64,000 nt of DNA, from contig CAXXIN010000012.1 of the NCBI GenBank assembly GCA_963665275.2, forward strand, positions 84,330 to 148,329. Reading direction: 5' to 3'. The position numbers and the translations under genes are program-made. The notes under the pieces are model-generated. The model made no database searches. It was not told the DNA's origin and saw only the letters and a program-made list of their open reading frames with translations. This DNA is from Negativicutes bacterium (GTDB lineage: Bacteria > Bacillota > Negativicutes > UBA1444). Positions 10,122-30,994 of the stretch are shown in pieces (within the stretch, counting starts at the first letter, position 1; the number at the start of each line of letters is the position of its first letter).

Positions 10122-11153
10122 TTATATCGTATTCTTTTTCGCGGCAGCCTCTCGTACCGATTCCCTATCGCACCGGATAAAAGCCATCAGTTCTTTGGCC
10201 GTCTGCGAATACAGTTTCGTTTCCTCATAATCAGGTTCTCCGCCGGACAAATGCTGCATCAATACTCCGTCCGTCCCAAACCAGCGGGGTGCAAGTCCTC
10301 CGAAGAAAAAGCCGTTATGCCGCAGCAATTCGACCGCTTCGCCAATTGCTGGGCAAGCTGCGTTCAGCACTACCTGCAAACTGACCACCTGCCGCCTGTC
10401 GGCCTCAGTCAGCAGTTCCTCCACCACCGTCGCCCAATCGCCGCCGATCGAGCTCACCGCTACTTTCCAGGTTTTCGCAAAGTCATAATACTTATCCTCT
10501 CGGACTGTATCGCCTGCCGCCGGCAAGGCTGCCGACGACGTCAGAAAAGTCCGGGGTCGTAGCGGCGCGGCCAGTCGTCGCAAATACTCATCATACCTGG
10601 CAGGCAAATACTCTGGCGCCACAGGGTCAGAAAGTTCCGAAAAATTCAGTACGCAGGATACTCGTGCCATGCCTGCCTTATTGCTTTTTCCGTCTTTAAA
10701 ACTGGCGCCGTCCAATTGATCCAGCTCCAGCGCACAGTCGACAAATCCTGACTTTATTGCGCTGACTTGGGTGAAATAATGACAGCAGACCGCTTCGCTG
10801 AAAATCCCGTCATTGCCAGACATTCTACACATTGTCGGATCAAAATAAAAGCACGCCAATTCCAATGACACAGCAGACTGGGCATAAGCCGGATCAACCA
10901 ACATATTTCCGGCTTCCCACAGCCGGAAGTTAGGGGCTGACTTGAAGAAAGAAATGTAACCTGCGGGATGCCCCTCGGCAGTCAACGCCAAAGCGGCCGT
11001 CAACTTTTCAGCTTGAATATCCCGCCACAACACGTCAGGTTGATACACGTCCTTGACGGGAAAGTCCTCACCATACAGCGCACGAAAAACAGCGCCCACA
11101 TGGTGTGCATTGTTTTTCCCTACCGCAACAATTTGAAACATTTTTTCCAACAT
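10122..11153 (-). CDS. tandem GNAT-like domain protein (putative acyltransferase)
   Basis: Aligns by eye to the N-terminal ~330 aa of 23734..26319 (YGEDFPV.VY.P, EAVCCHYFTQ, GFFFGGLAPRWFGTDGVLMQ). Start moved to ATG 11153. Confidence 0.7.
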   Translation of the reverse strand: MLEKMFQIVAVGKNNAHHVGAVFRALYGEDFPVKDVYQPDVLWRDIQAEKLTAALALTAEGHPAGYISFFKSAPNFRLWEAGNMLVDPAYAQSAVSLELACFYFDPTMCRMSGNDGIFSEAVCCHYFTQVSAIKSGFVDCALELDQLDGASFKDGKSNKAGMARVSCVLNFSELSDPVAPEYLPARYDEYLRRLAAPLRPRTFLTSSAALPAAGDTVREDKYYDFAKTWKVAVSSIGGDWATVVEELLTEADRRQVVSLQVVLNAACPAIGEAVELLRHNGFFFGGLAPRWFGTDGVLMQHLSGGEPDYEETKLYSQTAKELMAFIRCDRESVREAAAKKNTI

Positions 11154-11181
11154 TGGTCTTACCCCTTTTCTTCCGCGACTA

Positions 11182-11430
11182 TTATTTTGCGATTCGTTTA
11201 TCCAGATAGGCCACTGCATATGCGATAGTCGTCATTTCTTTTACATCTTCCTGTGGAATCGTTATCGCAAAGGTTTCTTCCGCCATTACCAGAAGTTCGG
11301 TGTAATCAAGCGAATCCAGTTTGAGGTTCTCCACCAGCAAAGCTTCCGGTTTCAAATCCGCCTCTGTGATATTTTTCTTTTTTAGTTTCAAAATGATTGC
11401 CTTTACTTTTTCCAATGTTGTCATGTTCAT
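11182..11430 (-). CDS. acyl carrier protein
   Basis: About 80 aa; LKLDSLD phosphopantetheine Ser motif, EETFAITIP. Confidence 0.9.
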   Translation of the reverse strand: MNMTTLEKVKAIILKLKKKNITEADLKPEALLVENLKLDSLDYTELLVMAEETFAITIPQEDVKEMTTIAYAVAYLDKRIAK

Positions 11431-11551: not shown

Positions 11552-12541
11552 TCAAATCCAACGCATAATGATGGACCCCCAGGCTAGTCCTCCGCCAAAT
11601 CCGGTCAGCGCAATCACATCGCCGGACTCAATCCGTCCGGTTTCCAACGCCTCGAAAAGAGCTATTGGAATGGTGGCGGATGATGTATTTCCGTACTTCT
11701 CCACATTGACCATAAATTTTTCCATCGGTAAGTCCATGCGCCGGGCGGCAGCTTCAATAATCCGACGGTTTGCCTGGTGCGGGATGATCAGTTTCAGATC
11801 TTCCCTGCGCAAATTCGCCAGCGTTAATGCCTGATCAGTGACTTCCGGCAACATTTTCATCGCAAATTTGAAAACCTCCGGCCCGTTCATCTGTATCTTA
11901 TTCATTTTGTCCGCTATCACTTCCGCCGTCGCCGGCTTCCGCGACCCGCCTGCCGGAACCATCATAAAGTTGGCCCCAGACCCATCCGCGCCGAGCTTCG
12001 CCGACAATATGCCATAGCCGGAAGGAACCTGACGCAATACCACCGCACCGGCCCCATCTCCGATAAGCATGCAGGTATCCTTATCCGACCAATTAATTAC
12101 CCGGGACACCGCCTCGGTTCCAATCACCAACACCGTCCGGGAAAATTCATTGGCAATAAACTGGGCGCCGACTGTCAGTGCATACACAAACCCCGAACAA
12201 ACTGCAGTCAGGTCAAACGCCGGAATATTTTTGATTCCCAAACGCTCCTGAATGATACAGGCAGTCGACGGGAACTGCATATCCGGGGTTGAGGTGGAAA
12301 CGATGATCAGATCCACTTCGTCCGGAGACACTCCCGCCCGGGCCAACGCCCGCTGTGCGGCAATAACGCCCAGATCGGAGGCTGCCTGCGAGGGCGCGGC
12401 GATATGGCGCTCCCTGATCCCCGACATGGATTCGATCCATTCTTCTGTGGCATCTATCATCCCTGCCAACTCAGCATTGGTCAATACTTTTTCCGGCGCA
12501 TACATCCCAACGCCTATGATCCCGGCACTAATCTCAGACAT
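11552..12541 (-). CDS. fabH: 3-oxoacyl-ACP synthase III (FabH family), copy 1
   Basis: AVCSGF, PHQAN and YGNTSSA give the Cys-His-Asn triad; GFGGGL. Confidence 0.93.
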   Translation of the reverse strand: MSEISAGIIGVGMYAPEKVLTNAELAGMIDATEEWIESMSGIRERHIAAPSQAASDLGVIAAQRALARAGVSPDEVDLIIVSTSTPDMQFPSTACIIQERLGIKNIPAFDLTAVCSGFVYALTVGAQFIANEFSRTVLVIGTEAVSRVINWSDKDTCMLIGDGAGAVVLRQVPSGYGILSAKLGADGSGANFMMVPAGGSRKPATAEVIADKMNKIQMNGPEVFKFAMKMLPEVTDQALTLANLRREDLKLIIPHQANRRIIEAAARRMDLPMEKFMVNVEKYGNTSSATIPIALFEALETGRIESGDVIALTGFGGGLAWGSIIMRWI

Positions 12542-12574
12542 GTTAATTCTCCCCCTCTTTCCAAGACAATCGAG

Positions 12575-13570
12575 TCAAATCCACCGCATCACAATCGATC
12601 CCCAGGTCAAGCCTGCGCCAAATCCGGTTAACACTACCACGTCACCCGATTTTATCCGACCGCTCTCCAATGCCTCATGCATCGCAATCGGAATGGAAGC
12701 CGAAGAAGTATTGCCATAGCGATCCAAATTCACCATAAACTTTTCCATAGGCAAGTCAAGACGTCGGGCCGCCGCCTCAATGATTCGAATATTGGCCTGG
12801 TGCGGAACAATCAGGTCGATATCATCTTTGCGCAAACCAGCAAGCGCCAGTGCCTGTTCCGTAACTTCCGGCAACATCTTCATGGCAAATTTAAATACTT
12901 CCGGCCCATCCATATGGAGTTTATTTCGGTTGGCTTCGATCAACTCCGGTGTCACAGGCAGCCGTGAACCACCCGCCGGCAGCTGCAGATGTTTGCCGCC
13001 GGCGCCATCCGAGCCAATCTTCATCGACAAAATTCCGCTACCCTGCGCAGTCGGCTGCAACGCAACAGCACCCGCTCCGTCCGCCAACAATATGCAGGTC
13101 TCGCGATCCGTCCAATTCGTCACTTTCGACAAAACTTCGGTCCCAATAACCAATACGGTCCGGCAAAAATCATTCGCAATAAATTGCGCCGCAATCGTGA
13201 GTGCGTAAATGAAACCCGTGCAACCCGCCGTCACATCGAAGGCCGGTATATTTTTGATGCCCAAACGATCCTGAATGATGCAGGCTGTCGAGGGAAACTG
13301 CATGTCAGCCGTCGCTGTCGCGACGATGATCAACCCCACTTCATCTGCAGAAACACCGGCCTGCGCCAACGCCCGCTGCGCCGCTATCACGCCTAGGTCA
13401 GAAGCCGCCTGTGAATCTTCTGCTATTCGTCGTTCCTTGATCCCGGTACGTTCCTGAATCCATTCATCACTGGTGTCGACCATCTTTGCAATTTCATCGT
13501 TCGTCAGCACTTTATCAGGCAGACACACTCCAATTCCGACGATTCCTGCTTTGACTCTTTTGTTTATCAT
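12575..13570 (-). CDS. fabH: 3-oxoacyl-ACP synthase III (FabH family), copy 2
   Basis: AGCTGF, PHQAN, YGNTSSAS, GFGAGL; RBS GGAGG before ATG 13570. Confidence 0.93.
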   Translation of the reverse strand: MINKRVKAGIVGIGVCLPDKVLTNDEIAKMVDTSDEWIQERTGIKERRIAEDSQAASDLGVIAAQRALAQAGVSADEVGLIIVATATADMQFPSTACIIQDRLGIKNIPAFDVTAGCTGFIYALTIAAQFIANDFCRTVLVIGTEVLSKVTNWTDRETCILLADGAGAVALQPTAQGSGILSMKIGSDGAGGKHLQLPAGGSRLPVTPELIEANRNKLHMDGPEVFKFAMKMLPEVTEQALALAGLRKDDIDLIVPHQANIRIIEAAARRLDLPMEKFMVNLDRYGNTSSASIPIAMHEALESGRIKSGDVVVLTGFGAGLTWGSIVMRWI

Positions 13571-13677
13571 TCCGATATCCTCCACCAACAAACTTCACTT
13601 ATCTTCGATAAAATCTTCTAATATATATTTTTTTGTTCTAGCTATTACCCTGCGGTTTTTCAGGATGGTGATCGACT

Positions 13678-15615
13678 TTATTCATTCTCGCAATTGGGTC
13701 CAAAATAGCGCAGCGCAAGCATCGTAATATCGTCGGACTGTTCCGCCCCTGCGGTGAACCGCGCCAGTTCTTCGGTCATTCCATTCACCAGTCCGACACA
13801 ATCCTGTTGCCGTAATCTGGATAAGGTCTCTTGGGTCCGATCATTGCCGAATAAGCGATTTTCTTTATCCATCGCTTCATTGACTCCGTCCGTGTAAAGA
13901 TACAGCGAATCGCCAGCCTGCAACACCAGCTCCGCCTCATCGAAGCTCATATCCTCCATAGCTCCGGCCAGGGTTCCCTTGGTGCGGGGCAAAAAGTTCG
14001 GTTCCCCTGCCGCCTCCGTTAAAAACGGCAGATTGTGTCCGCCGTTGGCCCAACGGAATTTTCCTGTCGGCAGATGCACCACCCCGCAGAATAACGTCAC
14101 GAACATGTTGGCATCATTGTTGCGGGCCAGTTCATTGTTGACCCGCACCAGCACTTTCCCTGGCGAGCGTTCCTCCTGTACGAAAGCGCGCAAGAATGTC
14201 CGCGTAACCGCCATGAACAGAGCCGCCGCAATTCCCTTGCCGGAGACATCCCCGATGACGATCCATAAATGGTCTGAATCAGGCATCATAAAATCATAGA
14301 AATCGCCACCCACTTCACGGGCCGGCGTCATCATCGCGTGAAGATCAAAGTCCTTTCGTGCAGGGAACGGCGGGAACGTTTTGGGTACCAGTTCCATCTG
14401 AATGCTCTGCGCGATTCGAAGCTCGCTTTCGATCCGTTCTTTGGCTGTAGCCGCATCCTGCAGCAACACAATATGTTTTTCCAACTCATCACGCATGGCC
14501 GCAAAAGAATTTGCCAGATTCGCCACTTCATCCTGCCCTGGAATCTGCGGCAGCGGAGCATTCAGGTCTCCTCCAGCCAGCGCCCGTGTGGCGTCGGCCA
14601 ATTTACGCAGCGGCCCGGTAATGGAGCGGGAAATCAACAGAATCACCGGCAACAGGAACAGAAAGCCGACGAACCCGATAGCGCTTTCCTTACGACTAAG
14701 TTCAGCGACTTTCGCCATCACTTCCGCCTCCGGAAAAAAAATGCCGATAGACCAACCGGTTGATTGAATGGGACGATACATCAGCCACCCTTCCTGCCCG
14801 GAAAAGATACTCCCGGTAGCAACGAACCCACTCCGCCCCTGGACCATCTCACGTCCGAGACTTCGCAGCTGGCTATTATGCTGCTCTTCCGCCTGGCTGA
14901 AAATGTTTTCCTTCAGGATCAGCTCTCGATTGGGGTGAGTGATAAAGGTACCGTTTTTCGAAAGCAGAAATGCATAACCGCCTTTGCCGAGAGGCAATGA
15001 ATCCAGCAAATCAGACAGCCATTCCAAAGAAATATCACTGGCAACCACGCCTCGGAAAACACCCGCACTATCGCGAATCGGCGAAGAGTAAGTGACCATG
15101 AGCGTGTTCCCTCTCGACTCCGCCCGGTAGGGTTCACTCCAACCCGCCTGCTTCATCATCTGCGGAATTGAGTACCAGTCCTGAACAAAATAGGGCGTTG
15201 CCTGTTTCCCGCGATCAGCCTGCACCAACTGGTTCCAGGAACGGAAAACATAAGGCGATGTATAGGCTTCGTTATAACCGAAGGCCCCCGGTTCCAAAGC
15301 CACAGAGGCGCCATAAATCTCCTCATTGTCCCGAACCAGCCGCTCCAGCAAAGCGTAAACTGTATCCTGACGAGACGGCGCCTGCAATTCCATCCGGCCA
15401 TCCATGCCACTGACTATTTTTCGCACCGCCACTTCAATCAGTTCGATCCGAGCAGTCGTCGCACGGGCCAGTTGTTCAGCCTTTGCTTCCTGTTCCTGCT
15501 CCAGGATCTGACGCGCCACGACATATCCGTAGCCGATCACAGCGGCTAAAGTGAGAACGGACGCCAACAAAACCGACACCGACAGCCGCCAGGTAATACT
15601 CAATTTACGGAACAT
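13678..15615 (-). CDS. membrane-bound Cache-HAMP-PP2C (SpoIIE/RsbU-family) phosphatase
   Basis: Two TM helices flank a Cache-like domain (DWY, WSEPY); HAMP (PL..L, DEV..LA.SF); EVGGDFYD, GDVSGKG, YTDGVNEA, QSDDIT. Confidence 0.92.
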   Translation of the reverse strand: MFRKLSITWRLSVSVLLASVLTLAAVIGYGYVVARQILEQEQEAKAEQLARATTARIELIEVAVRKIVSGMDGRMELQAPSRQDTVYALLERLVRDNEEIYGASVALEPGAFGYNEAYTSPYVFRSWNQLVQADRGKQATPYFVQDWYSIPQMMKQAGWSEPYRAESRGNTLMVTYSSPIRDSAGVFRGVVASDISLEWLSDLLDSLPLGKGGYAFLLSKNGTFITHPNRELILKENIFSQAEEQHNSQLRSLGREMVQGRSGFVATGSIFSGQEGWLMYRPIQSTGWSIGIFFPEAEVMAKVAELSRKESAIGFVGFLFLLPVILLISRSITGPLRKLADATRALAGGDLNAPLPQIPGQDEVANLANSFAAMRDELEKHIVLLQDAATAKERIESELRIAQSIQMELVPKTFPPFPARKDFDLHAMMTPAREVGGDFYDFMMPDSDHLWIVIGDVSGKGIAAALFMAVTRTFLRAFVQEERSPGKVLVRVNNELARNNDANMFVTLFCGVVHLPTGKFRWANGGHNLPFLTEAAGEPNFLPRTKGTLAGAMEDMSFDEAELVLQAGDSLYLYTDGVNEAMDKENRLFGNDRTQETLSRLRQQDCVGLVNGMTEELARFTAGAEQSDDITMLALRYFGPNCENE

Positions 15616-16612
15616 AGCCAAGCCCTCCGCCGGTGAAATCATCATAGAATGGCGACTGTTGCAGCAACCCCTGTTGACGCATCACCTGAACAGTTCTGGA
15701 GTAGTCTTGCCGGGATAACCTGCCGAAAGCCCATGAATCCTGTGCCCCCGGAATCACGCTGGTCAGGATCTTTTCCAGCATCCATTTCATGTGGGGCCGA
15801 TTCGTCGGCACATTATCTTTGATAACATACTGCATCACAATATCGAGCGCCTCGTCCGGATTCTCAGCCGCATACTTCCACCCGGCCAACGAAGCTTCGC
15901 GGAAATTGCGCGCCTGTTCAGGATTTTTCGTCAAGGCATCCCTGGTTGTATAAATCCCGTCCTCCGGAAAGCCAAACTCATCATCCCGCAGAAAGAACAG
16001 TTTCAGTTCGTCCATATCGATGCCTGTTTGATAAGCCATGTGAACTTCGTTGTAGTTCATTGCTGAACATGCCACGACTCCCTGCTGCAGGAAAAGGTTC
16101 ACAGAGTAGTACTGGGGTACAACCTCCGGGCGGGCATTCATTGCTTGCAACCAGGCGGCATACGGTGCGCGGAAGTCTCCGCCCCAGACACTGATTTTTT
16201 TGCCGGACAAATCGGACAGCGTAGAAATATTGTCCTTCTTCCAAGTCATCAACACTAAATTCGAGGAGTTAACGACCTGGGCCAGGTTCACCAGCGGGAT
16301 ATCCTTTTCACTGCGAGCGAGAGCCGCGCTCAGCCATAACGAAGCAAAATCCACTTCGCCCCGGATGAGAAAATCCGCAGCATCCAGTCCCGGACCGCCG
16401 GGGACGATGGAAACATCAAGTCCCTTATCCTTATAAAAACCTTTTTCCAGAGCGACGTAATACCCTGCGAACTGAGCCTGATGACTCCATTGCAGCATGA
16501 GACGTACCGGTTGAAGCTCAGTTGCCTGCACCGGAAGCATCCATAACAGCACCAGTATCAAAACAACCAGAGAAACCGGCAACCGCCCGGATGTTCGACT
16601 ATTTATCACCAT
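15605..16612 (-). CDS. NMT1/THI5-like substrate-binding protein
   Basis: Signal peptide; LQWSHQAQFAGYYVALEKGFY...GLDV motif. Confidence 0.88.
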   Translation of the reverse strand: MVINSRTSGRLPVSLVVLILVLLWMLPVQATELQPVRLMLQWSHQAQFAGYYVALEKGFYKDKGLDVSIVPGGPGLDAADFLIRGEVDFASLWLSAALARSEKDIPLVNLAQVVNSSNLVLMTWKKDNISTLSDLSGKKISVWGGDFRAPYAAWLQAMNARPEVVPQYYSVNLFLQQGVVACSAMNYNEVHMAYQTGIDMDELKLFFLRDDEFGFPEDGIYTTRDALTKNPEQARNFREASLAGWKYAAENPDEALDIVMQYVIKDNVPTNRPHMKWMLEKILTSVIPGAQDSWAFGRLSRQDYSRTVQVMRQQGLLQQSPFYDDFTGGGLGYVP

Positions 16613-17015
16613 AACGCACAGCCAATGACAGGATGTTGCGGTCCCCGCTGCGACTGTAGTGCACCTCGTCCAGCATCCTGCGAATCAGAAAAATACCCAG
16701 ACCGCCAACTTCACGGTTTTCCAGCTCCGACTTGATATCCGGCGCATCCGCCGCCAATGGATCGAAAGGAACGCCGACATCAGTCAACTCAATGCGAACA
16801 ACCTCCGCTTCCCGCGAAATCCGGATCGTAACTTCGCCGGGCGGAATTTCATAGGCATAGCTGCAAATATTGACAGCCGCTTCTTCCACCGCCAGTTCCA
16901 AATGCATTACCCGTTTTGGGTGAACGCCCATTGCGGTTGCAGTTTCTGAAACGAATCCCACAATATCGGGTATCGTTTCCATAGTGGCCGCAAAAGTTTT
17001 TTCCACACCGTCCAT
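16599..17015 (-). CDS. RsbW-like anti-sigma factor / Ser-Thr kinase (HATPase)
   Basis: LAVEEAAVNI (N box), DVGVPFDP (G1), GGLGIFLI (G2). Confidence 0.9.
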   Translation of the reverse strand: MDGVEKTFAATMETIPDIVGFVSETATAMGVHPKRVMHLELAVEEAAVNICSYAYEIPPGEVTIRISREAEVVRIELTDVGVPFDPLAADAPDIKSELENREVGGLGIFLIRRMLDEVHYSRSGDRNILSLAVRYGDK

Positions 17016-17353
17016 TATTTGTCCTCCCCGGCAGTTGCCTGCTCTACATCAGCATATACCGTCAGAATATTGTCGAAACCGGATATCGAGATAACCTCCT
17101 CAACCAAACCGGATAGGGAACAGAGGGATAGACTACCGTTAAGGGGTTTCACTTTTTTGGTAGCGGCAAGAATACTGCGGAGACCGGCGCTGCTGATATA
17201 CTCCAGGCCGCCGAAATCGAGTACGAGTCGGTGATGTCCCTCGGCAATCCAGTCCAGACAAGCTTTTTCAAACTGCGCTGCATTTCCGATATCAAGGCGC
17301 CCCTCCAAACGAATCACCCAAAAGCCGTTTTTCTCTTTTGTGCTTAAATTCAT
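17015..17353 (-). CDS. STAS domain anti-anti-sigma factor (RsbV-like)
   Basis: LEGRLD; LDFGGLEYISSAGLR carrying the phosphoacceptor Ser; ISGF. Confidence 0.9.
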   Translation of the reverse strand: MNLSTKEKNGFWVIRLEGRLDIGNAAQFEKACLDWIAEGHHRLVLDFGGLEYISSAGLRSILAATKKVKPLNGSLSLCSLSGLVEEVISISGFDNILTVYADVEQATAGEDK

Positions 17354-17394
17354 GTTGTTCAACCCTCCATATTTTATATTCATGCAAGCTCATA

Positions 17395-18513
17395 TTATGG
17401 CAAAATGTTTTTCAATGCCGCAACCAATTTCTCCATGACCGGCAACATTCCGAGCGTCACCCTAATGTGGTTGGGAAAACGGAATCCCGTCATCGACCGC
17501 ACCATGATTCCCTGGCGCATCAACTTTCGATACGCCAGCGTATCGCTCATCGGCAACCGAATCACCATATAGTTCCCTTCGCCGGAAATATACGGCAATC
17601 CCATTCGGGTCAGTTCCGTTTCGAGAAAACGCCTTGCTTCCCCCACCATCCGGCGGGTCCGTGCAACATGCTCTTCTGCGTCAAGAAGGGACCCCAGAGC
17701 GGCCTGCTGTGCTATGGAATTGACCGAGTACACCACGCAGGTTCGCCGGATCACATCCACCAATTTTTCTTGCCCGGCTAAAAAGCCAATTCGCAGCGCC
17801 GCCAGCGCAAACATTTTCGAAAAAGTCCGAAACACCAATAAATTCGGGTATTCCCGCATCAGCTCCATTCCGTTGGGAAAATCCGGTGCATCAACAAATT
17901 CGCCATAGGCCTCATCAACCACCACGATCTGTCGCCCATCCACCTGGTCGAGAAACTTGCGCAACCGTTCTTCGTTCCAATAAGTTCCGGTCGGATTGTT
18001 CGGATTGCAGATAAAAATGATTTTGGTGCGCGCATCGACCGCCGCCAGCATCGCCGCTTCATCATAGCCATAATCAGCTGCCAGTGGAACGAGCCGGGCT
18101 TCATAGCCGGAAAACTCCGCCACCCACTCATACACTGCGAACGTCTTGTCGGTGGTGATGATATTATCGCCTACCTGACAAAAAGCATTGATTACAAACG
18201 CAATGACTTCGTTGGCGCCATTGCCGACAATAAAAGAGTCCGGCGAATGTCCGAACTTCTCCGCCAGCTTCCGCCGCAAATGATAGGCGTCGCCGCTCGG
18301 ATAGATCGCTGCCTGAACCGGGTCCATCGCCCGGATGGCTTCCAAAGCTTTGGGCGATGGGCCGAGAGCATTTTCATTATTGTTCAGACGATAAAGAACC
18401 GGGCAGCCGAACATCTGTCGCAGCACATCATCGGGCTTATTGGGAATATACGGCTCGATTTTTTGAATGTGACGGGGAACCAGCGTCTCCAGCGGCGGAA
18501 ATGGATGATTCAC
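17395..18513 (-). CDS. PLP-dependent aminotransferase, histidinol-phosphate transaminase-like
   Basis: LNNNEN, CNPNNPTG, DEAY, and RTFSK (PLP Lys). No his operon context, so the substrate is uncertain. Confidence 0.85.
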   Translation of the reverse strand: MNHPFPPLETLVPRHIQKIEPYIPNKPDDVLRQMFGCPVLYRLNNNENALGPSPKALEAIRAMDPVQAAIYPSGDAYHLRRKLAEKFGHSPDSFIVGNGANEVIAFVINAFCQVGDNIITTDKTFAVYEWVAEFSGYEARLVPLAADYGYDEAAMLAAVDARTKIIFICNPNNPTGTYWNEERLRKFLDQVDGRQIVVVDEAYGEFVDAPDFPNGMELMREYPNLLVFRTFSKMFALAALRIGFLAGQEKLVDVIRRTCVVYSVNSIAQQAALGSLLDAEEHVARTRRMVGEARRFLETELTRMGLPYISGEGNYMVIRLPMSDTLAYRKLMRQGIMVRSMTGFRFPNHIRVTLGMLPVMEKLVAALKNILP

Positions 18514-19781
18514 AGGGTTTCACCCTCCCGAAGCATCAACACCAGAATATCCCCTCGGCCTCCCCACGGCAAAATCCACTGGGGAACAAAACCGGCTGCC
18601 GACAAAGCCGGGCTGAGCATCGCCTGTTCCGCTACGCCTGTATCCAGATGAAACTGAATTTCCGTGAACCCTTCCTGCCTCAGTGCCCGAACATGCTCCA
18701 GCAATACCGGAGCCGCGTCCTGTCCTACCCAGATGGCTGTCAGCGTCACCCGCCCAACCGGCCGGTTCATCTGTGCAGCAAAGGCCGAGCAGGGAGACAG
18801 ACTTTCCCCCTGATGTTCAACAGGATGCGCCGCTCGCGGCAAATAGAGCTGCTGATAGCATTCTTGTAAAAAAGCAGCAAACTGCGGGTGTGCATAGGCC
18901 GTCGTCCCATTGTCTTCTTCCAGTTGCCTGTATAGCACCGATCCATCCTGCGCAAGCTGTTCGAAGTATCCCGGCGGCATATCCGCTGTCGGATCAAGCA
19001 CCACCATGCAAACAGCAGAAGTTCGGGCCATTTTTCGCAAACAGGCTTCCACCGCAAGAATCGACAAATGCGATGGATCATAAAAAGCATAAGGACCAAA
19101 AGCCTCCACCAGTTTTTGTCCCCGCCGCCAGAGCATCCCTGCGCCGACATTGCCTTTGCCGTCCGCCAGCAATACAGCGCCATACTCACCACAGGCAACC
19201 ATGTCGGCGACTTTTCCGGGAAAAGTGAAGAAGAAAGGCGCTTGCGTTCCATATTTCGCCGTTACGCGAGAGGCAAATTGTTTCAGCAGTTCCGTTTCCG
19301 GCTCAACTTCCTGGAAATTTCCTGACGATGCCAACTCCGGCAGGCGCTCCTGCAAAGAGGGATACCGCTTGTTTTTGACAAAACAAATTTTCATTTCGCC
19401 GTTTTCTGCTGATATCCCCAATTGATCGACAGTCCGCGCCGCGAGCAGCAGGCCCATCTCATCCAGGGATTGCTCGTCGTCCGAAGAAACCGTCGAGGTA
19501 ATGTTGAAGGCGCCGACCGGCAACGCATGCTGAGGAAACCGGCAGACGACTTCCGCATAATACCCGCCATTGCGGCACAGCAGCTTCAACCGCTGATCCG
19601 CGGCGATGCGGGCTGCCAAAAACGAATACACCTCTTCCACCGCCAACGTCAAATGCATGGCTTCGGCCCGTCCCATGTCGAAAGCCTGCACCGACTGTTC
19701 AACACAACCTGTTGCGATCGGCAAAAATTCCGCTTGCAGAGGCAGGTTCAACTCGATATTTTGTCGATTTGGCACCTTCAC
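18510..19781 (-). CDS. degenerate RsbW/HATPase domain fused to GNAT-like domains
   Basis: N-terminal MHLTLAVEEVYSF and EMGLLLAARTVD parallel the RsbW at 16599. C-terminal LSAAGFVPQWILPWGGRGDILVL parallels the GNAT-like C-termini in the cluster. Confidence 0.65.
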   Translation of the reverse strand: MKVPNRQNIELNLPLQAEFLPIATGCVEQSVQAFDMGRAEAMHLTLAVEEVYSFLAARIAADQRLKLLCRNGGYYAEVVCRFPQHALPVGAFNITSTVSSDDEQSLDEMGLLLAARTVDQLGISAENGEMKICFVKNKRYPSLQERLPELASSGNFQEVEPETELLKQFASRVTAKYGTQAPFFFTFPGKVADMVACGEYGAVLLADGKGNVGAGMLWRRGQKLVEAFGPYAFYDPSHLSILAVEACLRKMARTSAVCMVVLDPTADMPPGYFEQLAQDGSVLYRQLEEDNGTTAYAHPQFAAFLQECYQQLYLPRAAHPVEHQGESLSPCSAFAAQMNRPVGRVTLTAIWVGQDAAPVLLEHVRALRQEGFTEIQFHLDTGVAEQAMLSPALSAAGFVPQWILPWGGRGDILVLMLREGETL

Positions 19782-19791
19782 ATCCCTCCGT

Positions 19792-20634
19792 TCATTTTAG
19801 TCCAGCCTGCGCGAGCCGCAACAACAGATTCCCGGCAACGCATCTCCGGTAATCGGCGCTTGCCCGAAGGTCATCAATGGGACAAACGGCAGCGGCCGCG
19901 AGCTGCCCTGCGTCGCGCACGCACTCCACCGACAGGACTCGCCCCAATAGATACTCCTCCACCGCCGGCGCTATTGTCACAGTCGGACCGACGCTACCCC
20001 AGGCCAGCTTCACAGCTGTTATCGTTCCGTCGTCGTCGGTCGTCAGGCTGGCCGCCATACTCGCCACCGAGATCGCCATTGCCTTACGTTTTCCCACCTT
20101 GTAATACACGGAGCGCATCGCGGCGGCGGGCCTGGGCACTCTGACAGCGGTTACCATTTCGCCGGCTTGCAATGTTGTTTTGCCCGGACCGGTGATAAAA
20201 TCAGCCACCGGTTGACGGCGGGATCCGGTCGCGCTGCACACTTCAACCGCGGCGTCCAAAACATAGAGCGGCGGCAAGGTATCGCCAGCCGGCGAGGCCG
20301 TGCAAACATTGCCGATCAAGGTTGCGCTATGGCGAACCGGCGGGGATGCAAGTTCTGCTATTGCTTGATGCAAAGCAGTCAGCTCCTGCTTAATGGTCTC
20401 GCATTCCAGCAGGCTTTGGAGAGTTACGGCAGCACCGATAACAAATTCCTCTTCCAAAATGTCAAGTCTCTGCAGTTCCTCAATGCGTTCGATACAAAAA
20501 ACTGCCGACGGTTTCTGCCCGTTGCGGCGCAATCTGACCAGCAGATCAGTCCCTCCCGCCATTATGAGTCCGTCAGGACTGTCCGCTCTCATTGTATTCA
20601 ATTCTTCCAGCGTTCGGGGAAACAGCACTTCCAT
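19792..20634 (-). CDS. xanthine dehydrogenase family FAD-binding subunit
   Basis: AGGTDLLV, ATLIGNVCTASPAGD, PIDDLRASADYR; TGATG coupling to the upstream gene. Confidence 0.92.
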   Translation of the reverse strand: MEVLFPRTLEELNTMRADSPDGLIMAGGTDLLVRLRRNGQKPSAVFCIERIEELQRLDILEEEFVIGAAVTLQSLLECETIKQELTALHQAIAELASPPVRHSATLIGNVCTASPAGDTLPPLYVLDAAVEVCSATGSRRQPVADFITGPGKTTLQAGEMVTAVRVPRPAAAMRSVYYKVGKRKAMAISVASMAASLTTDDDGTITAVKLAWGSVGPTVTIAPAVEEYLLGRVLSVECVRDAGQLAAAAVCPIDDLRASADYRRCVAGNLLLRLAQAGLK

Positions 20635-21107
20635 CAGCTCATCCCCCCATTCAGGATCCGAGCTGCAGCCATAACAGCGTCCACGATTTTTTGGTAGCCG
20701 GTGCAGCGGCACAAGTTACCGCTCAATTCCCGGCGAACTTCTTCGCGCGTCGGATCAGGAATGCGGCGCAGCAAATCCAATGTGGCCAAGATCATTCCCG
20801 GAGTGCAAAAGCCGCACTGCACGGCGCCGTGGTCGACAAAAGCCTGTTGAACGACATGAAGTTCTCCATTTGAAGCAAGTCCTTCGATCGTCAGAAGGGT
20901 CCGGCCCTCGAGTTGCGCTGCCAGCATCAGGCACGACAGCCGACTTTCCCCATCGACCAAAATCGTGCAGGCGCCACATTCTCCCGAGCCGCAGCATTCT
21001 TTCGTACCGCCCAGCCCCAGATCCTCACGCAGCAAATCAACTACCCGCCGGTCGGGCGCCGTTTCCACACTCATGGATTTTCCGTTTAAAATAAAATTCA
21101 CCTTCAC
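20634..21107 (-). CDS. xanthine dehydrogenase family (2Fe-2S) subunit
   Basis: CCGSGECGAC, QCGFCTPG, GNLCRCTGY. Confidence 0.95.
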   Translation of the reverse strand: MKVNFILNGKSMSVETAPDRRVVDLLREDLGLGGTKECCGSGECGACTILVDGESRLSCLMLAAQLEGRTLLTIEGLASNGELHVVQQAFVDHGAVQCGFCTPGMILATLDLLRRIPDPTREEVRRELSGNLCRCTGYQKIVDAVMAAARILNGGMS

Positions 21108-23449
21108 GGCCTACCCTCCTGCCCTGTCTGACGCAATGCCGCCAATACGTTTTCCGCATTCATCGTTTCGGCGGCAATTCGGAATCCCGCAGCGTCCGCA
21201 ATCGCATTGGCGACAGCCGGCAACACCCCGTCAATTCCGATTTCACCGACGCCCTTCATCCCAAAGGGACCTTCCTTTTCATTTGGGGTGACAGGCACCG
21301 TCACCATATCCGGAACATCCAGCGCCGTCGGCAAAATATAGGTGCTGAAATCATTCGTCAGAATCCGTCCGTCCGAAACGGCAAATTCCTCAAACAGTGC
21401 GTAACCCAGCCCCTGGGCTGCGCCGCCCTGAACCTGCTGTTCATAGACCTGCGGGTTCAGGACCCGCCCTGCATCCACACAATTCAACATATCGACGGCC
21501 GTAGTTTCACCTGTCAGGGTATCGATTTCCACCGCGACAAGTTGTACCCCATAGGTTATAACCCGGTGAGGAAATCCGTGCATGCGCAAATTTTCGCCAC
21601 TGGCTATCGGTTGATCATTTACCGGGCAAGTATAGCTGTAAGTAGTCGTTCGTTCCGACGCATCCATCACCGAAGCAACCAGCGCCAACGGAACACTGCG
21701 CCCGGAAGGCAGATGCCGCGCCAGGCCCGGCAGCAAAATAATCTCTTCTATGGAAACACTATGAAGCAACTGGAAAGAAATCATCAAGGCCGCCCGGGCG
21801 CGAATCCTGTCTAGCAATAATTCCGCCGCTCCAATCATCGCATTGCCATAGGTGAAGGTTGTGCGACTGGCAGATGAGGACGCCGAAGGCAAGGTTCGGG
21901 ACGTATCCGGCATAACGAGCTCCATCGTTTTTTGGGGCTGACAGAGGATATGCCCTGCGATCTGCGCATAGGTGCTGGCATTGCCCTGTCCCATATCGGA
22001 CACCCCTACATAGACGCGAATCTTGCCATCGGTCAGGAGCTCCAGTTTGGCATTGGCATAGTCGGCAATAGCCGGACCAAACCCGACGCTATGATAAACC
22101 GCCGCCACCCCAACGCCTCTGCGCTTGAAGTCCGGCGCGCCAGCGCACCATTTTTTCCGGCGCCGCCACAAAGGATGCCGCTCTGTTTCATCCAGACATC
22201 CCAGTAATCCTGTCGTCTGTGTCAGCAATACGCCGGTCGGTGAAGTATCCCCGCGCGAAACCGCATTTTTTCGCCGCAGTTCGAGCGGGTCAAACCCTCC
22301 CGCCTTAGCCAGTTCATCGATCGCCTGCTCCATGGCAGCAGCCGCCTGCGGCACACCAAATCCCCGAAATCCGCCTGAAACCGGATTATTGGTATACGCG
22401 ACCGAACCACGGACCAGCACATTGGGGATCCGGTAAGGTCCACCCGCATGTTCCATGGCCAAGGCAAATACTTCGCTGCCAAGAGAAGCATAAGCGCCAG
22501 TATCAAACAAAAGCTTACAGGATAAAGCCTGCAGAACCCCGTCCTGATCACAGCCCACCGTGTACTCCGCACGCATCGGATGCCGTTTTACTCCCGTCAG
22601 TATACTCTCTTCACGCGAATACCACAGTTTCACCGGACGTCCTCCGCTGTGCATCGCCGCCAGCGCCAGGAATCCCTGAACGGTAACGCCGTCTTTGCCG
22701 CCGAAGCCTCCACCGAGGCAGGGTGCGACAATATGAATCTTTGCCGGTGACAAGCCTAAAGCCTCCGCCAGTTCCAACCGGTCGCGAAAAGGGGTCTGGG
22801 TGGAAACCGTCATCGACAGGGTTCCATCCTCTTCCATCCAGGCAACTCCGGCCTGTGTCTCCAGAAAGGCATGTTCCTGCCAGCCGGTCCGAATCTTCAC
22901 CGTGGCCTGAAACGTACATTTCCCCAGATTCGCCGCTCCGTCGCCGCAAACGATCTCACTTTGGATCAGCACATTCCCGGCCGGACGGGTTGGGTGCAAA
23001 ATCGGCGCACCCTCTTCCAGCGCCGCTTCGGGATCGAACACAGGCGGCAACGGCTCATACTCAACCCGGATAGCCGCCAAAGCCGCCGCGAGGGTCTCCT
23101 TGCCCTCCGCCACCACCAAAGCCACGGCATCGCCATAATGGCGCACCCGTTCATCGGCCAAAATCGGTTGATCCTTTTCGAAAATCCCCAGGCGATTTTT
23201 TCCCTTGATATCGCGGTGCGTTTGAACAGACACGACTCCTGCGAGGGCAGTCGCTCCTGTTGTATCAATCGCCAGAATTCGCGCATGAGCATGTTCGGAC
23301 CGCTTGACCCCCGCCCACAGAAGGCCCTCCGGGTACAGATCCGCTGCAAAAACTTCAGCACCCGTCACCTTTGTCAACGCATCCAGTCGCGGAGCATTGC
23401 AGCCGATTTCCCACACCTGAGCGGTCTTCCTCTGCCTATTTTCCGACAT
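21104..23449 (-). CDS. xanthine dehydrogenase family molybdopterin-binding subunit
   Basis: GGGFGGK, FRGFG, DMGQG, QVQGG, and KGVGE (catalytic Glu). Confidence 0.93.
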   Translation of the reverse strand: MSENRQRKTAQVWEIGCNAPRLDALTKVTGAEVFAADLYPEGLLWAGVKRSEHAHARILAIDTTGATALAGVVSVQTHRDIKGKNRLGIFEKDQPILADERVRHYGDAVALVVAEGKETLAAALAAIRVEYEPLPPVFDPEAALEEGAPILHPTRPAGNVLIQSEIVCGDGAANLGKCTFQATVKIRTGWQEHAFLETQAGVAWMEEDGTLSMTVSTQTPFRDRLELAEALGLSPAKIHIVAPCLGGGFGGKDGVTVQGFLALAAMHSGGRPVKLWYSREESILTGVKRHPMRAEYTVGCDQDGVLQALSCKLLFDTGAYASLGSEVFALAMEHAGGPYRIPNVLVRGSVAYTNNPVSGGFRGFGVPQAAAAMEQAIDELAKAGGFDPLELRRKNAVSRGDTSPTGVLLTQTTGLLGCLDETERHPLWRRRKKWCAGAPDFKRRGVGVAAVYHSVGFGPAIADYANAKLELLTDGKIRVYVGVSDMGQGNASTYAQIAGHILCQPQKTMELVMPDTSRTLPSASSSASRTTFTYGNAMIGAAELLLDRIRARAALMISFQLLHSVSIEEIILLPGLARHLPSGRSVPLALVASVMDASERTTTYSYTCPVNDQPIASGENLRMHGFPHRVITYGVQLVAVEIDTLTGETTAVDMLNCVDAGRVLNPQVYEQQVQGGAAQGLGYALFEEFAVSDGRILTNDFSTYILPTALDVPDMVTVPVTPNEKEGPFGMKGVGEIGIDGVLPAVANAIADAAGFRIAAETMNAENVLAALRQTGQEGRP

Positions 23450-23681
23450 GTTGCTCCACATAATCGACCGCCGTCGCCAATGTCTTGAGTTTCATAACAT
23501 CCGAACCGCGCAGAACAAAATCGAAAGTATCCTCCATATCCGCCAATATCCAGCTGAAAGCCAGCGAATCCACTCCCATCGTTGCCAGTTCCTGCGCAGG
23601 GATAATTGTATCGGGGTTAACTCCTGATATCCGCTTGGCAATAATTTTACGCAACTCGCTCTCAATCTTTTGTCGTTCCAT
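23436..23681 (-). CDS. acyl carrier protein
   Basis: About 81 aa; MGVDSLAF Ser motif; RBS GGAGG before ATG 23681. Confidence 0.88.
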   Translation of the reverse strand: MERQKIESELRKIIAKRISGVNPDTIIPAQELATMGVDSLAFSWILADMEDTFDFVLRGSDVMKLKTLATAVDYVEQHVGK

Positions 23682-23733: not shown

Positions 23734-26319
23734 TTACTGCTGCGCCATTTCTTCTACCGCCAGGTCGCGCAGTTTGAATTTCTGCACCTTACCGCTGGCT
23801 GTCAGCGGATACGCATCCACAAAAAAGAACATAGCCGGAACCTTGTTAATGGCAATTCTTTCCCGGCAATATCGTTTCATTTCCAGCACGCTAGCGCTCT
23901 CTTCCTGTTGGAGACGCACAAAAGCTACCAGGTCTTCTCCGTAATAATCACAGGGAATCCCGACCACCTGAGCATCCAAAATTTTGGGATGCGTCATCAG
24001 AAACGCCTCGATTTCAGCCGGATAAATGTTCTCGCCGCCCCGGATGATCAAGTCTTTGATCCGGCCGGTGATGACGCAATACCCCGAGGAGTCAAGCGTC
24101 GCCAAATCTCCAGTATGGAGCCGGCCTGCCGAATCAAGAGCCTTGGCCGTCTGTTCTTCCATTTTGTAATACCCGGTCATCATCGAGGTCCCCCGGACGC
24201 ACAGTTCCCCTGCAACTCCCACTGGCGCGATTTCATCGGTTTGCGGATCAACAATCTTCACTTCATAGCCGGGCATGGCGTTACCCACACTGCCGACCCT
24301 TCGTCCCACAGAATCTGACGGCGCATTCATGAGACTGACCAAAGCCTCCGTAGATCCATATAAAATTCCGAATTCCGGCGCACCCATCTTCTCAATCACT
24401 GCTCTGACTAATTCCGGCGGACAAAAAGCTCCCGCCACGTTTCCTCCGCGCAGCGCCGACAAGTCATAGGGGCGGCGCGACATTTCTTCGAGGGCAGCCA
24501 CGAACATTGTCGGCGTTCCCGACACCGCGGTTGCCCGACTCGTCTCCATCACCTGCAGCATTTCCTGCGCCCGGAAACGTTCCACAACCGCCACCGCTGC
24601 CCCCACGATTAAGGAGGAAATAGTGGTGAGACAGCCATATGCATGAAAAAACGGCAACGGCACACATACAATATCTTCCGACGTCAATCCCTGCCGCTGT
24701 GCAATAGCCCGGGTGTTTTCAATATAAGCCGCATGGCTGAGCATTGCGCCCTTCGGCGCTCCGGTAGTTCCGGACGTATATTGAAGGGTAAAAATATCGC
24801 TTCCAGATACAGACTGTTCTCTTTCCGTCAAAGAATCGTCAGCAATCTTTGATCCGCCTGCTAAAAACTCCGTCCAACTCAGCATTCCCGGCTGGGACGT
24901 TCCATCCAACAGCACAACCTGCTGGAGCTGCGGCAGTTGCTTCTTTATTTCTTGCAGAGCGTCCAAATATTCTCCTGGCCGTCCAACGCCGCTGACTAAA
25001 AACAACAAACGGGTATCCGACTGCTGCAAAACATATTCCAACTCACAGGCGCGATAGTTGGTATTGATCATCACCAGCGGGACACCCGCCAGCGCGCAGC
25101 CAAACTCTATCATCATATACTCCGGAATATTCGGCGCCCAGATCGCAGCATGGTCTCCCCGTTCAATCCCGAGCCCCATGATAGCTTTAGCCGCCTGCAT
25201 TGCTGCACACTGAAATTCCACATAGGTCAGGGCCAGCTGTCGTTGTGGAAATAGCAACGCCACCTTGTTCGGATAGTCTTGCGACGTTTTGTGCAACAAA
25301 TCGCCCATCGTCCGAATGCAGACCGTCTCCCGATCCTGCCGAACCATCTCCCGCAACTTTCGGGCCCGTTTGGTGAGTAAAAAGATTTGCTCAAAATCAG
25401 GAGCGTGCAGAGTTTTCTGCATCAACAAGCCATCCTCATCGAACCACCGGGGTAATGCGCCGCCAATAAAATAGCCACGCTGCCGGAGAATCTCCACGGC
25501 CCTCCCGACCCACGGTTCGCTCAGTCGCAAAAACACCTGCCGAATGAGGGTCCCTGCGGAGGAAGCTTCGCTCTCCAGCGCCGCCAACCGGTCTTCGAAG
25601 TCATCCCCAACCCGCTCAAAAGTCATCCTTGCCACCCCGGCTTCGCCAAACACGCGCAAAGAGGCCTGCGTTTCCACATGCTCCGGCAGCGGGGCGGTAG
25701 ACACTTCAAACGTATGCCCCCACTCCGGCGAATCATAAAGGAACCGCAGGACTTCTTCGTATACCGACGGCAAATACAGGGTCTGCGGGCGCGGCTGAAA
25801 CGACCGGTACACCACCAGCGCCGACACCCGCCCCTTGTAAACCGGAGGTCCGCTCAATGCCTTGGCATAGGACTCGGCAGGCATCAGATCCACTTCCAGC
25901 GCCATCTCGATGAACTGATTGTCCCGGACCATCTGCTGTGTGAAAGGGTGATTGCATACCGCTTCGCCCCAAATCGACTCCAAGCCTCTTTGGCGGGGGA
26001 TGACGGCCAACGACTGTTCCATCAGCTGAAATGCAACATCCGTTTGTCTGAAGTCATGACGCACCAGCAACTGACCGTGCTCATAAAGTCCCGGGTTCGG
26101 CGGCGACGACCGATAGAACGCGACGTGCCCTACGACAGCTCCGTCCGGCGTTCGGGCCACCATCCGCCACGCTTCTTTCGCCTCCTCCTGACGAACCTTG
26201 GCCTCGGGATCGTAAACCGTCCTCACCGGATAATTTTCCCCATAGACTGCCCGATACAGTTCTGTCACTCCACTGGCGTCCTGCGGGCGAAAGGCATCGA
26301 TCTCCCAGGCCTGCTCCAC
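23734..26319 (-). CDS. GNAT-like domains fused to an AMP-binding (acyl-CoA/acyl-ACP ligase) domain
   Basis: N-terminal GNAT pattern (FRPQDA..V..LY, GQLLVRHDFRQTDVA). C-terminal YTSGTTGAPKG, YGSTE, HTGD, GRIKDLIIRGGENIYP, SGKVQK. Confidence 0.88.
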   Translation of the reverse strand: MEQAWEIDAFRPQDASGVTELYRAVYGENYPVRTVYDPEAKVRQEEAKEAWRMVARTPDGAVVGHVAFYRSSPPNPGLYEHGQLLVRHDFRQTDVAFQLMEQSLAVIPRQRGLESIWGEAVCNHPFTQQMVRDNQFIEMALEVDLMPAESYAKALSGPPVYKGRVSALVVYRSFQPRPQTLYLPSVYEEVLRFLYDSPEWGHTFEVSTAPLPEHVETQASLRVFGEAGVARMTFERVGDDFEDRLAALESEASSAGTLIRQVFLRLSEPWVGRAVEILRQRGYFIGGALPRWFDEDGLLMQKTLHAPDFEQIFLLTKRARKLREMVRQDRETVCIRTMGDLLHKTSQDYPNKVALLFPQRQLALTYVEFQCAAMQAAKAIMGLGIERGDHAAIWAPNIPEYMMIEFGCALAGVPLVMINTNYRACELEYVLQQSDTRLLFLVSGVGRPGEYLDALQEIKKQLPQLQQVVLLDGTSQPGMLSWTEFLAGGSKIADDSLTEREQSVSGSDIFTLQYTSGTTGAPKGAMLSHAAYIENTRAIAQRQGLTSEDIVCVPLPFFHAYGCLTTISSLIVGAAVAVVERFRAQEMLQVMETSRATAVSGTPTMFVAALEEMSRRPYDLSALRGGNVAGAFCPPELVRAVIEKMGAPEFGILYGSTEALVSLMNAPSDSVGRRVGSVGNAMPGYEVKIVDPQTDEIAPVGVAGELCVRGTSMMTGYYKMEEQTAKALDSAGRLHTGDLATLDSSGYCVITGRIKDLIIRGGENIYPAEIEAFLMTHPKILDAQVVGIPCDYYGEDLVAFVRLQQEESASVLEMKRYCRERIAINKVPAMFFFVDAYPLTASGKVQKFKLRDLAVEEMAQQ

Positions 26320-27726: not shown

Positions 27727-27823
27727 TTCACGCTCCTCCGCTGTTAATTTCGCGCCGCTGTCGTTAATTTCCTGCGTATGATCATTCTCTACCGCAGGAT
27801 TTTCAAGCAGTTCCGGACAACAC

Positions 27824-27868
27824 AAAAGCAGAGCCGCAATGAACTCAAGGTTCATAGGGCTCTGCAAA
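27824..27868 (-). terminator. intrinsic terminator of the DASS-fumarase operon
   Basis: GCAGAGCC..ATGAAC-loop-GTTCAT..GGCTCTGC followed by TTTTGTGTT. Confidence 0.7.
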
Positions 27869-28449: not shown

Positions 28450-28463
28450 GTTCCCCATCCCTC

Positions 28464-29309: not shown

Positions 29310-29373
29310 AAACGATCCTTCCTTTCCACATTTTCATATCGTCGCTTTGATCCCGGTTATTTGAAAGCTCGAC

Positions 29374-30777: not shown

Positions 30778-30947
30778 GTATTCTCCTCCTTTTTAATAGT
30801 AAAATAAATTCGCCTGAATTTGCATTCCCCATTGATCAAATTCGCGAATCTTAGGATGACAAAAACAAAAGATAAAGATTTCAGAATTTCACTTACATTT
30901 ACTATAACATTCAGACTCTTCATTAATCCAATATATGAAGAACATGA

Positions 30948-30964
30948 TATAATAAATTATTATA
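30948..30964. promoter_or_regulatory. possible LysR recognition site
   Basis: AT-rich dyad TATAAT-AAATT-ATTATA containing T-N11-A, between the divergent DASS and LysR genes. Confidence 0.35.
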
Positions 30965-30994
30965 ATGATTCATCCGAAAGAGCGAGGGCAATTC

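Follow-up and report, generated by a model that had tools for sequence, protein, structure and literature searches.

The window analysed here is a stretch of 64,000 nucleotides from a Negativicutes bacterium (assembly GCA_963665275.2, contig CAXXIN010000012.1). Its gene at 18510..19781 codes for a protein, called the target below, which is predicted to join a degenerate kinase domain of the RsbW/SpoIIAB type to GNAT-like domains. The gene stands in a cluster that also encodes all parts of a partner switch, namely a STAS protein with a phosphorylatable serine, an intact kinase and a PP2C phosphatase. Partner switching is a textbook route to sigma-factor control, and to our knowledge few cases are known in which an enzyme is the output of such a switch. 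A sequence-only reading of this DNA had proposed an output of this kind, with the unphosphorylated STAS protein docking on the dead kinase domain and directly gating an acyltransferase. The genes of the cluster are given here in their order, together with the parts of the target.

26335..27867, minus strand: MatE exporter, first gene of the conserved block
23734..26319, minus strand: GNAT-like module (about 330 amino acids) fused to an acyl-coenzyme A (acyl-CoA) ligase
19792..23461, minus strand: molybdenum enzyme of the xanthine dehydrogenase family with three subunits (L, 21104-23461; S, 20634-21107; M, 19792-20712)
18510..19781, minus strand: target open reading frame, coordinates exact, coding for a pseudo-RsbW, GNAT and GNAT-like protein of 421-423 amino acids
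19356..19775, minus strand: N-terminal domain of the target (residues 1-140), RsbW/SpoIIAB fold without N-box Asn, G1 Asp and GGLG, with the predicted STAS-docking surface
18915..19325, minus strand: middle domain of the target (residues 151-287), GNAT fold
18513..18893, minus strand: C-terminal subdomain of the target (residues 295-421), weakly GNAT-like, carrying the conserved LPWGGxGD motif
17395..18513, minus strand: class I/II aminotransferase of the HisC family, with a 4-nt overlap with the target gene (TIGR01141, 298.7 bits; cut-off 276.55)
17015..17383, minus strand: single-domain STAS protein (PF01740, E 6e-22) with the conserved phospho-serine motif (E/D)YISSAGLR
16599..17015, minus strand: intact RsbW-like serine kinase of 138 amino acids, HATPase_c_2 (PF13581, E 1.4e-24), with N-box Asn, DxG and GGLG present
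15605..16612, minus strand: NMT1/SsuA-like binding protein, between the kinase and phosphatase genes and overlapping both
13678..15645, minus strand: dCache-HAMP-PP2C sensor phosphatase of the SpoIIE type (PF07228, E 1.3e-50)
11552..13591, minus strand: two FabH-type ketosynthases, in Negativicutes loci only
10122..11219, minus strand: stand-alone GNAT-like paralogue of 365 amino acids without a Pfam match, a distant homologue of the C-terminal part of the target

From 23461 down to 11552, the row of minus-strand genes is tightly packed, with gaps of -79 to +86 nt. MatE, the ligase fusion and the three subunits of the molybdenum enzyme precede the target, and the aminotransferase and STAS genes follow it; downstream of STAS come the HATPase_c_2 kinase, the NMT1/SsuA-like protein, the phosphatase, the two ketosynthases and the 365-residue protein. 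The target gene is translationally coupled to the aminotransferase gene. The genome contains two more HisC-like paralogues (C19:121002-122078 and C7:623990-625000), making three in all, and the product of the cluster gene is, judging from sequence, probably an enzyme dedicated to the pathway and not the one of histidine biosynthesis. The molybdenum enzyme stays under all equivalog cut-offs of NCBIfam; among the structures in the PDB, nicotinate dehydrogenase and 4-hydroxybenzoyl-CoA reductase lie at about the same distance from it. Catabolism of aromatic compounds or N-heterocycles and synthesis of N-acyl amino acids were considered as the pathway, with nothing decisive found for either.

The target comprises 423 amino acids when counted from its GTG start and 421 in the protein-database copy. 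The database holds 69 relatives, every one of them unnamed or 'hypothetical', and 114 stretches from species-representative genomes encode a relative, two of them in methanogens. All counts of loci and homologues out of 80 given below cover the best 80 of these 114 stretches, which were scanned with the proteins of the window. Sequence profiles say little about the target itself: it yielded no Pfam match even at E≤10, which places it below the gathering score of PF13581, and no NCBIfam match even at E≤0.1, and a profile search against PDB sequences returned RsbW at marginal values (E 0.55-0.67). A Pumilio match in the latter search was discarded as spurious. An AlphaFold2 model of the full-length protein, built from a 21-sequence alignment, reached a predicted local distance difference test (pLDDT) value of 88.1 and a predicted template-modelling score (pTM) of 0.86. 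As modelled, the target consists of three parts, an N-terminal domain with RsbW/SpoIIAB fold, a middle domain with GNAT fold and a weakly GNAT-like C-terminal subdomain, and the sequence-only observation of a dead RsbW-like domain followed by GNAT-like domains was thereby upheld by the reading frame, the fold searches and the motif counts alike. The 21 aligned family members share the invariant stretches FPGKxxDM, YRQLxEDxG and LPWGGxGD, and so many invariant residues suggest a specific function.

The kinase-like nature of the N-terminal domain was evident at several levels. In a Foldseek search with the target model, SpoIIAB, RsbW and UsfX came out on top (1til_E with E 5.7e-8 and TMt 0.79; 6m36_A with TMt 0.88), which places the domain in the Bergerat (GHKL) ATP-binding fold known from small anti-sigma kinases. 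The VIA search, which is independent of Foldseek, gave SpoIIAB (1l0o_A) with Z 16.4, a root-mean-square deviation (rmsd) of 3.2 and 135 aligned residues, followed by 6m36_A (Z 15.2), 8ih8_C (Z 14.9), the RsbW domain of Rv1364c (Z 13.9) and SiaB (6kko_B, Z 11.7). The parallel drawn earlier between the target N-terminus and the cluster kinase, MHLTLAVEEVYSF in the target and MHLELAVEEAAVN in the 138-residue HATPase_c_2 protein, was recovered by BLASTP with 14 identities in 42 positions (E 2e-4, target residues 9-50), a likeness which is weak but real at the sequence level. Furthermore, a jackhmmer search seeded with the kinase retrieved the N-terminal domains of 80/80 target homologues over profile positions 4-133, and 12 of the 21 aligned family members matched PF13581 at E≤1 (best value 6.8e-6).

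For a comparison of the catalytic motifs, the 80 homologues and 30 kinase-type sequences encoded in these loci were put into one alignment. The column of the N-box Asn, which is Asn in 26/30 kinase-type sequences, contains Tyr in 48, Phe in 21, His in nine and Val in two homologues and Asn in none; in the target itself the residue is F52. The G1 Asp, present in 27/30 kinase-type sequences, is replaced mostly by Ala, Val, Arg, Thr, Pro or Gly (the six commonest residues in this column), and the G1 Gly is likewise almost always substituted. The GGLG motif has become (D/E)E(M/T)G in the family and DEMG in the target, with the final Gly alone retained (G108, 79/80 homologues). The loss of the N-box Asn, the DxG box and GGLG, which had been claimed for the target, is thus a property of the whole family. 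At the same time L44, A45, E47 and E48 are retained in 80/80 homologues. Because the motifs are lost family-wide while these residues persist, the alignment identifies the domain as an old, conserved pseudokinase rather than a product of recent decay. Its surviving kinase features, again as read from the alignment, are the LAxEE helix and the final Gly of the G2 box, and the ligands of Mg-ATP are lost.

The GNAT fold of the middle domain is clear, with matches to many GNAT acetyltransferases in the VIA search at Z 13.1-10.7 (e.g., 9mto_B and 4pv6_C). The C-terminal subdomain gave a pLDDT of 91.0 when modelled by itself, and its best match was the N-terminal domain of the Nudix enzyme NUDT7 (Z 8.1), followed by dozens of GNATs with Z 5.8-7.9; we call it GNAT-like because these fold matches are only weak. 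The likeness claimed for the C-terminus of the target to the other GNAT-like domains of the cluster was not found by BLASTP, which gave nothing significant against the two genes concerned (E 0.28 and 1.8), but was recovered by hhalign, where target residues 150-416 aligned with residues 22-322 of the 365-residue protein at a probability of 95.7% (E 9.3e-9). The latter protein in turn shares 33% identity (E 8e-51) with the N-terminus of the ligase fusion (about 330 residues, 23734-24730, minus strand). Judged by these alignments, the cluster contains three paralogous GNAT-like modules, each in another architecture. As to profile matches among relatives, one member of the family of the 365-residue protein (in locus L014) matches PF00583, and 1/21 target relatives matches Acetyltransf_6 (E 0.11).

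The neighbourhood of the target is conserved. The aminotransferase gene directly follows the target gene in 80/80 loci, the subunits of the molybdenum enzyme are present in 63-68 and the GNAT-like module, free or fused to the ligase, in 58-67 of them; the target sits in a conserved cluster with a molybdenum hydroxylase, a GNAT-like acyl-CoA ligase and an exporter. The loci belong to Negativicutes, Clostridia (Desulfosporosinus, Pelotomaculum and Clostridium thailandense) and the two methanogens, and many come from Desulfobacterota-type lineages such as Syntrophus, Smithella, Syntrophorhabdus and Desulfomonile. Locus L015 is that of Sporomusa malonica DSM 5090. The dCache-HAMP-PP2C architecture of the phosphatase recurs in loci L023 and L029. 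In the Pelotomaculum loci (L036:14303-16066 and L040:13557-15332), phosphatase and kinase are united in one protein of 5TM-LytS, PP2C and HATPase_c_2 domains, followed by STAS. The NMT1/SsuA-like gene is present in 14/80 loci and recurs in a further genome next to STAS and kinase genes that are not linked to the target (L081:2303-3295); its product may take part in the sensing step.

The claim that the cluster contains no sigma factor holds. The genome has four Sigma70_r2 matches, of which none lies on the 148-kb contig of the window, and a scan seeded with these four sigma factors found a sigma-family reading frame in only 1/80 loci. The additional statement that no DNA-binding regulator is present needs some correction, because the cluster is flanked by two such genes:

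30965-31909, plus strand: LysR gene
8122-8595, minus strand: MerR gene

Both were rejected as regulators of the cluster, since none of the 80 related loci holds a homologue of either. The LysR gene is divergent and belongs to a stretch upstream of the cluster (27889-31909) with a DASS transporter and a two-subunit fumarate hydratase; because 1/80 related loci has DASS and none has the fumarase genes, this stretch looks from the comparison like a separate unit outside the conserved block. Over the whole genome (G000, 92.6% complete), the four Sigma70_r2 matches face eight for STAS and 13 for HATPase_c_2, and this ratio hints that several of its partner switches have outputs other than sigma factors.

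We then assessed the association of the target with partner-switch genes, counting these as linked when they lay within 10 kb of it. A STAS gene was linked in 37/80 loci, a PP2C gene in 33 and a kinase with intact motifs in 26. Forty-three loci reach 8 kb or more in both directions from the target, and of these 24 contained STAS and 28 at least one partner-switch gene. With 8 STAS matches in 3.97 Mb, the rough background in this genome amounts to about 0.04 per 20 kb. In L025 the STAS gene precedes that of the target, and in L043 the two are directly adjacent or overlap. All 39 STAS reading frames listed from the loci contain the motif core SSxGLR, and a profile of the STAS genes from the loci gave 153.8 bits for the STAS protein of the window and 47.6-63.2 bits for its six paralogues in the same genome, which marks the cluster-type STAS as a distinct clade, recognisable in sequence by its (E/D)YISSAGLR motif.

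This clade accompanies the target even where the genes are not linked. Five genomes without STAS near the target, including both methanogens, were searched, and 5/5 hold a STAS gene of 105.7-144.1 bits elsewhere; an unlinked kinase lies beside the unlinked STAS in four of the ten STAS loci from these genomes (L081, L086, L087 and L088). In an even sample of 151 genomes from the class of the window, the full-length target occurs in 25, and a STAS gene scoring 124.8 bits or more is found in all 25, several of them having it megabases from the target or on a different contig; only 4 of the 126 genomes without full-length target reach this value, with the reservations that STAS genes of the target loci had served to train the profile and that related genomes are not independent. 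Three of these four carry another protein with a target-like N-terminal domain, which in the cases fetched was a fusion of HATPase_c_2 and GNAT of about 500 residues. In the two methanogen metagenome-assembled genomes (L014, Methanoregula; L019, Methanoculleus), the full pseudokinase-GNAT protein adjoins the aminotransferase. Cluster-type STAS genes of 98.8-116.7 bits stand elsewhere in the methanogen genomes (L084, L085, L089 and L090), one of them by a 5TM-LytS PP2C phosphatase, and these sequences suggest that partner-switch parts exist in archaea.

The docking of STAS on the dead domain was then examined by structure prediction, using the alignment of the full-length target together with a STAS alignment in three runs and with three controls. 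The complex reached a score of 0.81 (0.83, 0.80 and 0.81 in the individual runs), and the best of the three controls reached 0.00. The corresponding mark is attained by 116/157 solved complexes and 2/215 mismatched pairs, a calibration which is only approximate here because self-made alignments were used. The runs agreed in at least 96% of the predicted contacts, with a partner pLDDT of at least 87. The full-length target was offered, yet all confident interface residues lie within the N-terminal domain (15, 18-19, 37, 40-41, 43-44, 47-48, 51, 95-96, 98, 104, 107-108, 110-111 and 114-115), and the tightest predicted pairs are those of Ser64 and Ser65 of STAS with E47, E48, L44, M107, G108 and L111. 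The conservation of the interface residues was 0.616, compared with 0.496 for the rest of the N-terminal domain, and 252 of 10,000 permutations reach that value. The prediction agrees with the docking on the dead domain that the sequence-only reading had envisaged. SpoIIAB, RsbW and UsfX all have solved structures with a bound STAS partner, and the pass may therefore reflect the SpoIIAA-SpoIIAB and RsbV-RsbW complexes memorised by the predictor, or plain likeness to them, instead of binding by this particular copy.

With a probability of roughly 0.55, we propose on the basis of these models that the target serves as a receiver, carried on the enzyme itself, for a partner switch that works independently of sigma factors. 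Of the original proposal, the structural half, a dead RsbW fold joined to GNAT, is established, whereas the half concerning STAS docking and gating has gained indirect, in silico support from linkage, co-occurrence and complex prediction; the steps beyond the domain assignments are inferred throughout. The dCache-HAMP-PP2C phosphatase, possibly together with the NMT1-like binding protein, would sense a cue and dephosphorylate STAS, and the intact RsbW-like kinase would re-phosphorylate it. Unphosphorylated STAS would place its Ser64/Ser65 loop onto the dead active site (E47, E48, M107, G108, L110, L111 and R114), whereas the invariant glutamates, together with the acidic residues in place of the glycine-rich ATP loop, would keep phospho-STAS away. 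Such acidic residues beside two invariant glutamates would disfavour a phospho-serine at the site, in keeping with a dock that is sensitive to phosphorylation. Through docking, the GNAT module, and perhaps also the coupled aminotransferase, would then change in activity or assembly, so that the pathway would come under post-translational control. That docking activates the enzyme is a guess.

Several points weigh against this proposal. Besides the circular element in the co-occurrence profile and the approximate calibration noted above, no partner-switch gene was found within 10 kb in 38/80 loci, or in 15 of the 43 loci with full flanks, and both methanogen loci are among them. The conserved interface residues (LAxEE, G, R/K and D) are equally conserved in true kinases, and because of this they may be kept for folding and not for STAS binding. 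The enzyme part is also uncertain in its function. GNAT sequence profiles gave no match to the target at E≤10. Canonical GNATs carry a pyrophosphate- and CoA-binding loop, Q/RxxGxG/A, after strand 4, and the loop after the target strand at 222-230 reads YDPSH, with no such pattern evident by eye. An acyltransferase role of the GNAT-fold part is on these grounds only putative.

The same observations are what an alternative would build on in which the dead domain is a structural, dimerisation or substrate-binding part without STAS binding, and the switch acts on another target of the kinase or of STAS, e.g., an unlinked sigma factor or a different protein, standing in the cluster merely through co-regulation. 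It would account for an N-terminal domain that is kept in 80/80 homologues although so many loci, including both archaeal ones, have no partner-switch gene within 10 kb, and for the sharing of its conserved residues with real kinases; high-scoring STAS-kinase pairs also adjoin other genes (in L088, beta-oxidation genes and a GNAT). We regard it as rather unlikely, because the cluster-type STAS is found in 25/25 target genomes of the class sample versus 4/126 others and is retained in 5/5 genomes where it is unlinked, because the complex prediction passed its controls and picked the N-terminal domain out of the full-length protein, and because a sigma gene is present in only 1/80 loci.

Somewhat less probable still is a variant in which the intact kinase is the direct partner, sequestering the enzyme in the manner of an anti-sigma factor through its dimer surface with the dead domain, until unphosphorylated STAS pulls the kinase off. 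SpoIIAB and RsbW act as dimers, the N-terminal domain and the kinase share their fold and the 14/42 identities in the N-terminal helices, and an intact kinase is present in 26/80 loci, all of which would suit this variant. However, 11 of the 37 STAS loci have no kinase within 10 kb, five of these containing STAS and PP2C, and the gene most often linked to the target is STAS (37 loci, vs. 33 for PP2C and 26 for the kinase). That the N-terminal domain is an atypical active kinase which phosphorylates STAS itself would explain why five loci that hold STAS together with PP2C show no recognisable kinase within 10 kb, and would agree with the invariance of E47 and E48 and with a STAS serine predicted to face into the former active site, but is very improbable, because the N-box Asn is missing in 80/80 homologues and the G1 Asp in almost all, the glycine-rich loop has become acidic, a separate intact kinase is encoded in the window and in 25 other loci, and an unlinked kinase accompanies the unlinked STAS in 4/10 loci.

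Our preferred reading, STAS docking on an enzyme-borne receiver, can be compared with known systems. With the true kinases RsbW, SpoIIAB and UsfX (PDB 1L0O, 1TH8, 6M36 and 8IH8), the target shares the fold of residues 3-139 (Z 16.4-14.9), the LAxEE helix with the terminal Gly of the G2 box, and a predicted STAS docking that sets the phospho-serine loop on the active-site face. It differs from them in that its family lacks the N-box Asn (0/80), the DxG of G1 and GGLG, that the target has no Pfam match, that its domain is fused to about 280 residues of a GNAT-like enzyme, and that no sigma factor is encoded on the contig. For the enzyme part, the two-domain GNATs histidine acetyltransferase (9EMP) and glycine N-acyltransferase (7PK0) are among the Foldseek matches and share the GNAT fold of residues 151-287. 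Unlike these, the target has no GNAT Pfam match or evident CoA loop, its second lobe reaches a Z of at most 8.1, and the two-domain alignments have an rmsd of about 14-17 Å.

Enzyme outputs of partner switches are already known. In the SiaABCD system of Pseudomonas aeruginosa, which consists of the PP2C phosphatase SiaA, the kinase SiaB, the partner SiaC and the diguanylate cyclase SiaD, the unphosphorylated partner is reported to bind and control the enzyme, with SiaC attaching to the stalk helices of SiaD (PMC8457831). The proposed system is alike in having an enzyme instead of a sigma factor as its output, and SiaB is a fold neighbour of the target N-terminal domain (6kko_B, Z 11.7); it differs in that the proposed receiver is a dead kinase copy fused to a GNAT-like enzyme and that the partner is a canonical STAS protein. 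In the HenR/All4160 system of Anabaena PCC 7120, a phosphorylation module resembling a partner switch is reported to act directly on a biosynthetic enzyme, the glycosyltransferase All4160, which bears its own phosphorylatable STAS domain (PMC13555669). The fusion there is the opposite of the present one, where STAS is free and the dead kinase domain sits on the enzyme. In the literature searched at abstract level, no description of a fusion of a dead RsbW domain and GNAT was found, and the terms sought on this fusion are absent from the text of PMC8256260. A dead-kinase receiver domain on an enzyme appears to be a new form of direct enzyme output.

Degenerate RsbW-like N-terminal domains, with the Asn replaced and without DxG, were also observed on other proteins, some of them (L091:4328-5800, L092:538-2040 and L093:2214-3716) being fusions of about 500 residues of HATPase_c_2 and Acetyltransf_1 in unrelated contexts, and others (L074:8044-9891 and L040:3969-5417, both on the minus strand, and L036:4884-6791) matching the module of the 365-residue type; one of the latter adjoins LuxC/LuxE genes. 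The HATPase_c_2 and Acetyltransf_1 fusions as a group (about 490-550 amino acids, automatically named 'GNAT family N-acetyltransferase') show the same domain order as the target, and those of L091, L092 and L093 likewise lack the N-box Asn and the G1 Asp. They differ from the target in being longer, in having a GNAT domain that matches Pfam, and in standing in other gene contexts without the aminotransferase. No study of these fusions was found in the literature searched.

The enzymes with a candidate receiver domain so far comprise the target, the HATPase_c_2-GNAT proteins of about 500 residues and the three fusions with a module of the 365-residue type. As a tentative extension, which we would hold with less confidence than the receiver role of the target itself, the dead RsbW-like domain could be a portable STAS-receiver module that wires partner switches onto metabolic enzymes without a sigma factor, in anaerobic bacteria as well as methanogenic archaea. 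In the present cluster, such a module might gate the formation of an exported, acylated compound derived from an amino acid, upon an extracellular cue sensed at the dCache phosphatase.

If the proposed mechanism is true, the target would exemplify an evolutionary route for rewiring partner switches, in which a copy of the kinase drops catalysis, keeps its face for unphosphorylated STAS and is fused to an enzyme. Members of the family are common among syntrophic and fermenting anaerobes, where they have gone unannotated, and the family marks an uncharacterised conserved cluster of aminotransferase, molybdenum hydroxylase, acyl-CoA ligase and exporter. Cultured hosts of the family are available in Sporomusa malonica, Desulfosporosinus fructosivorans, Clostridium thailandense and Pelotomaculum propionicicum.

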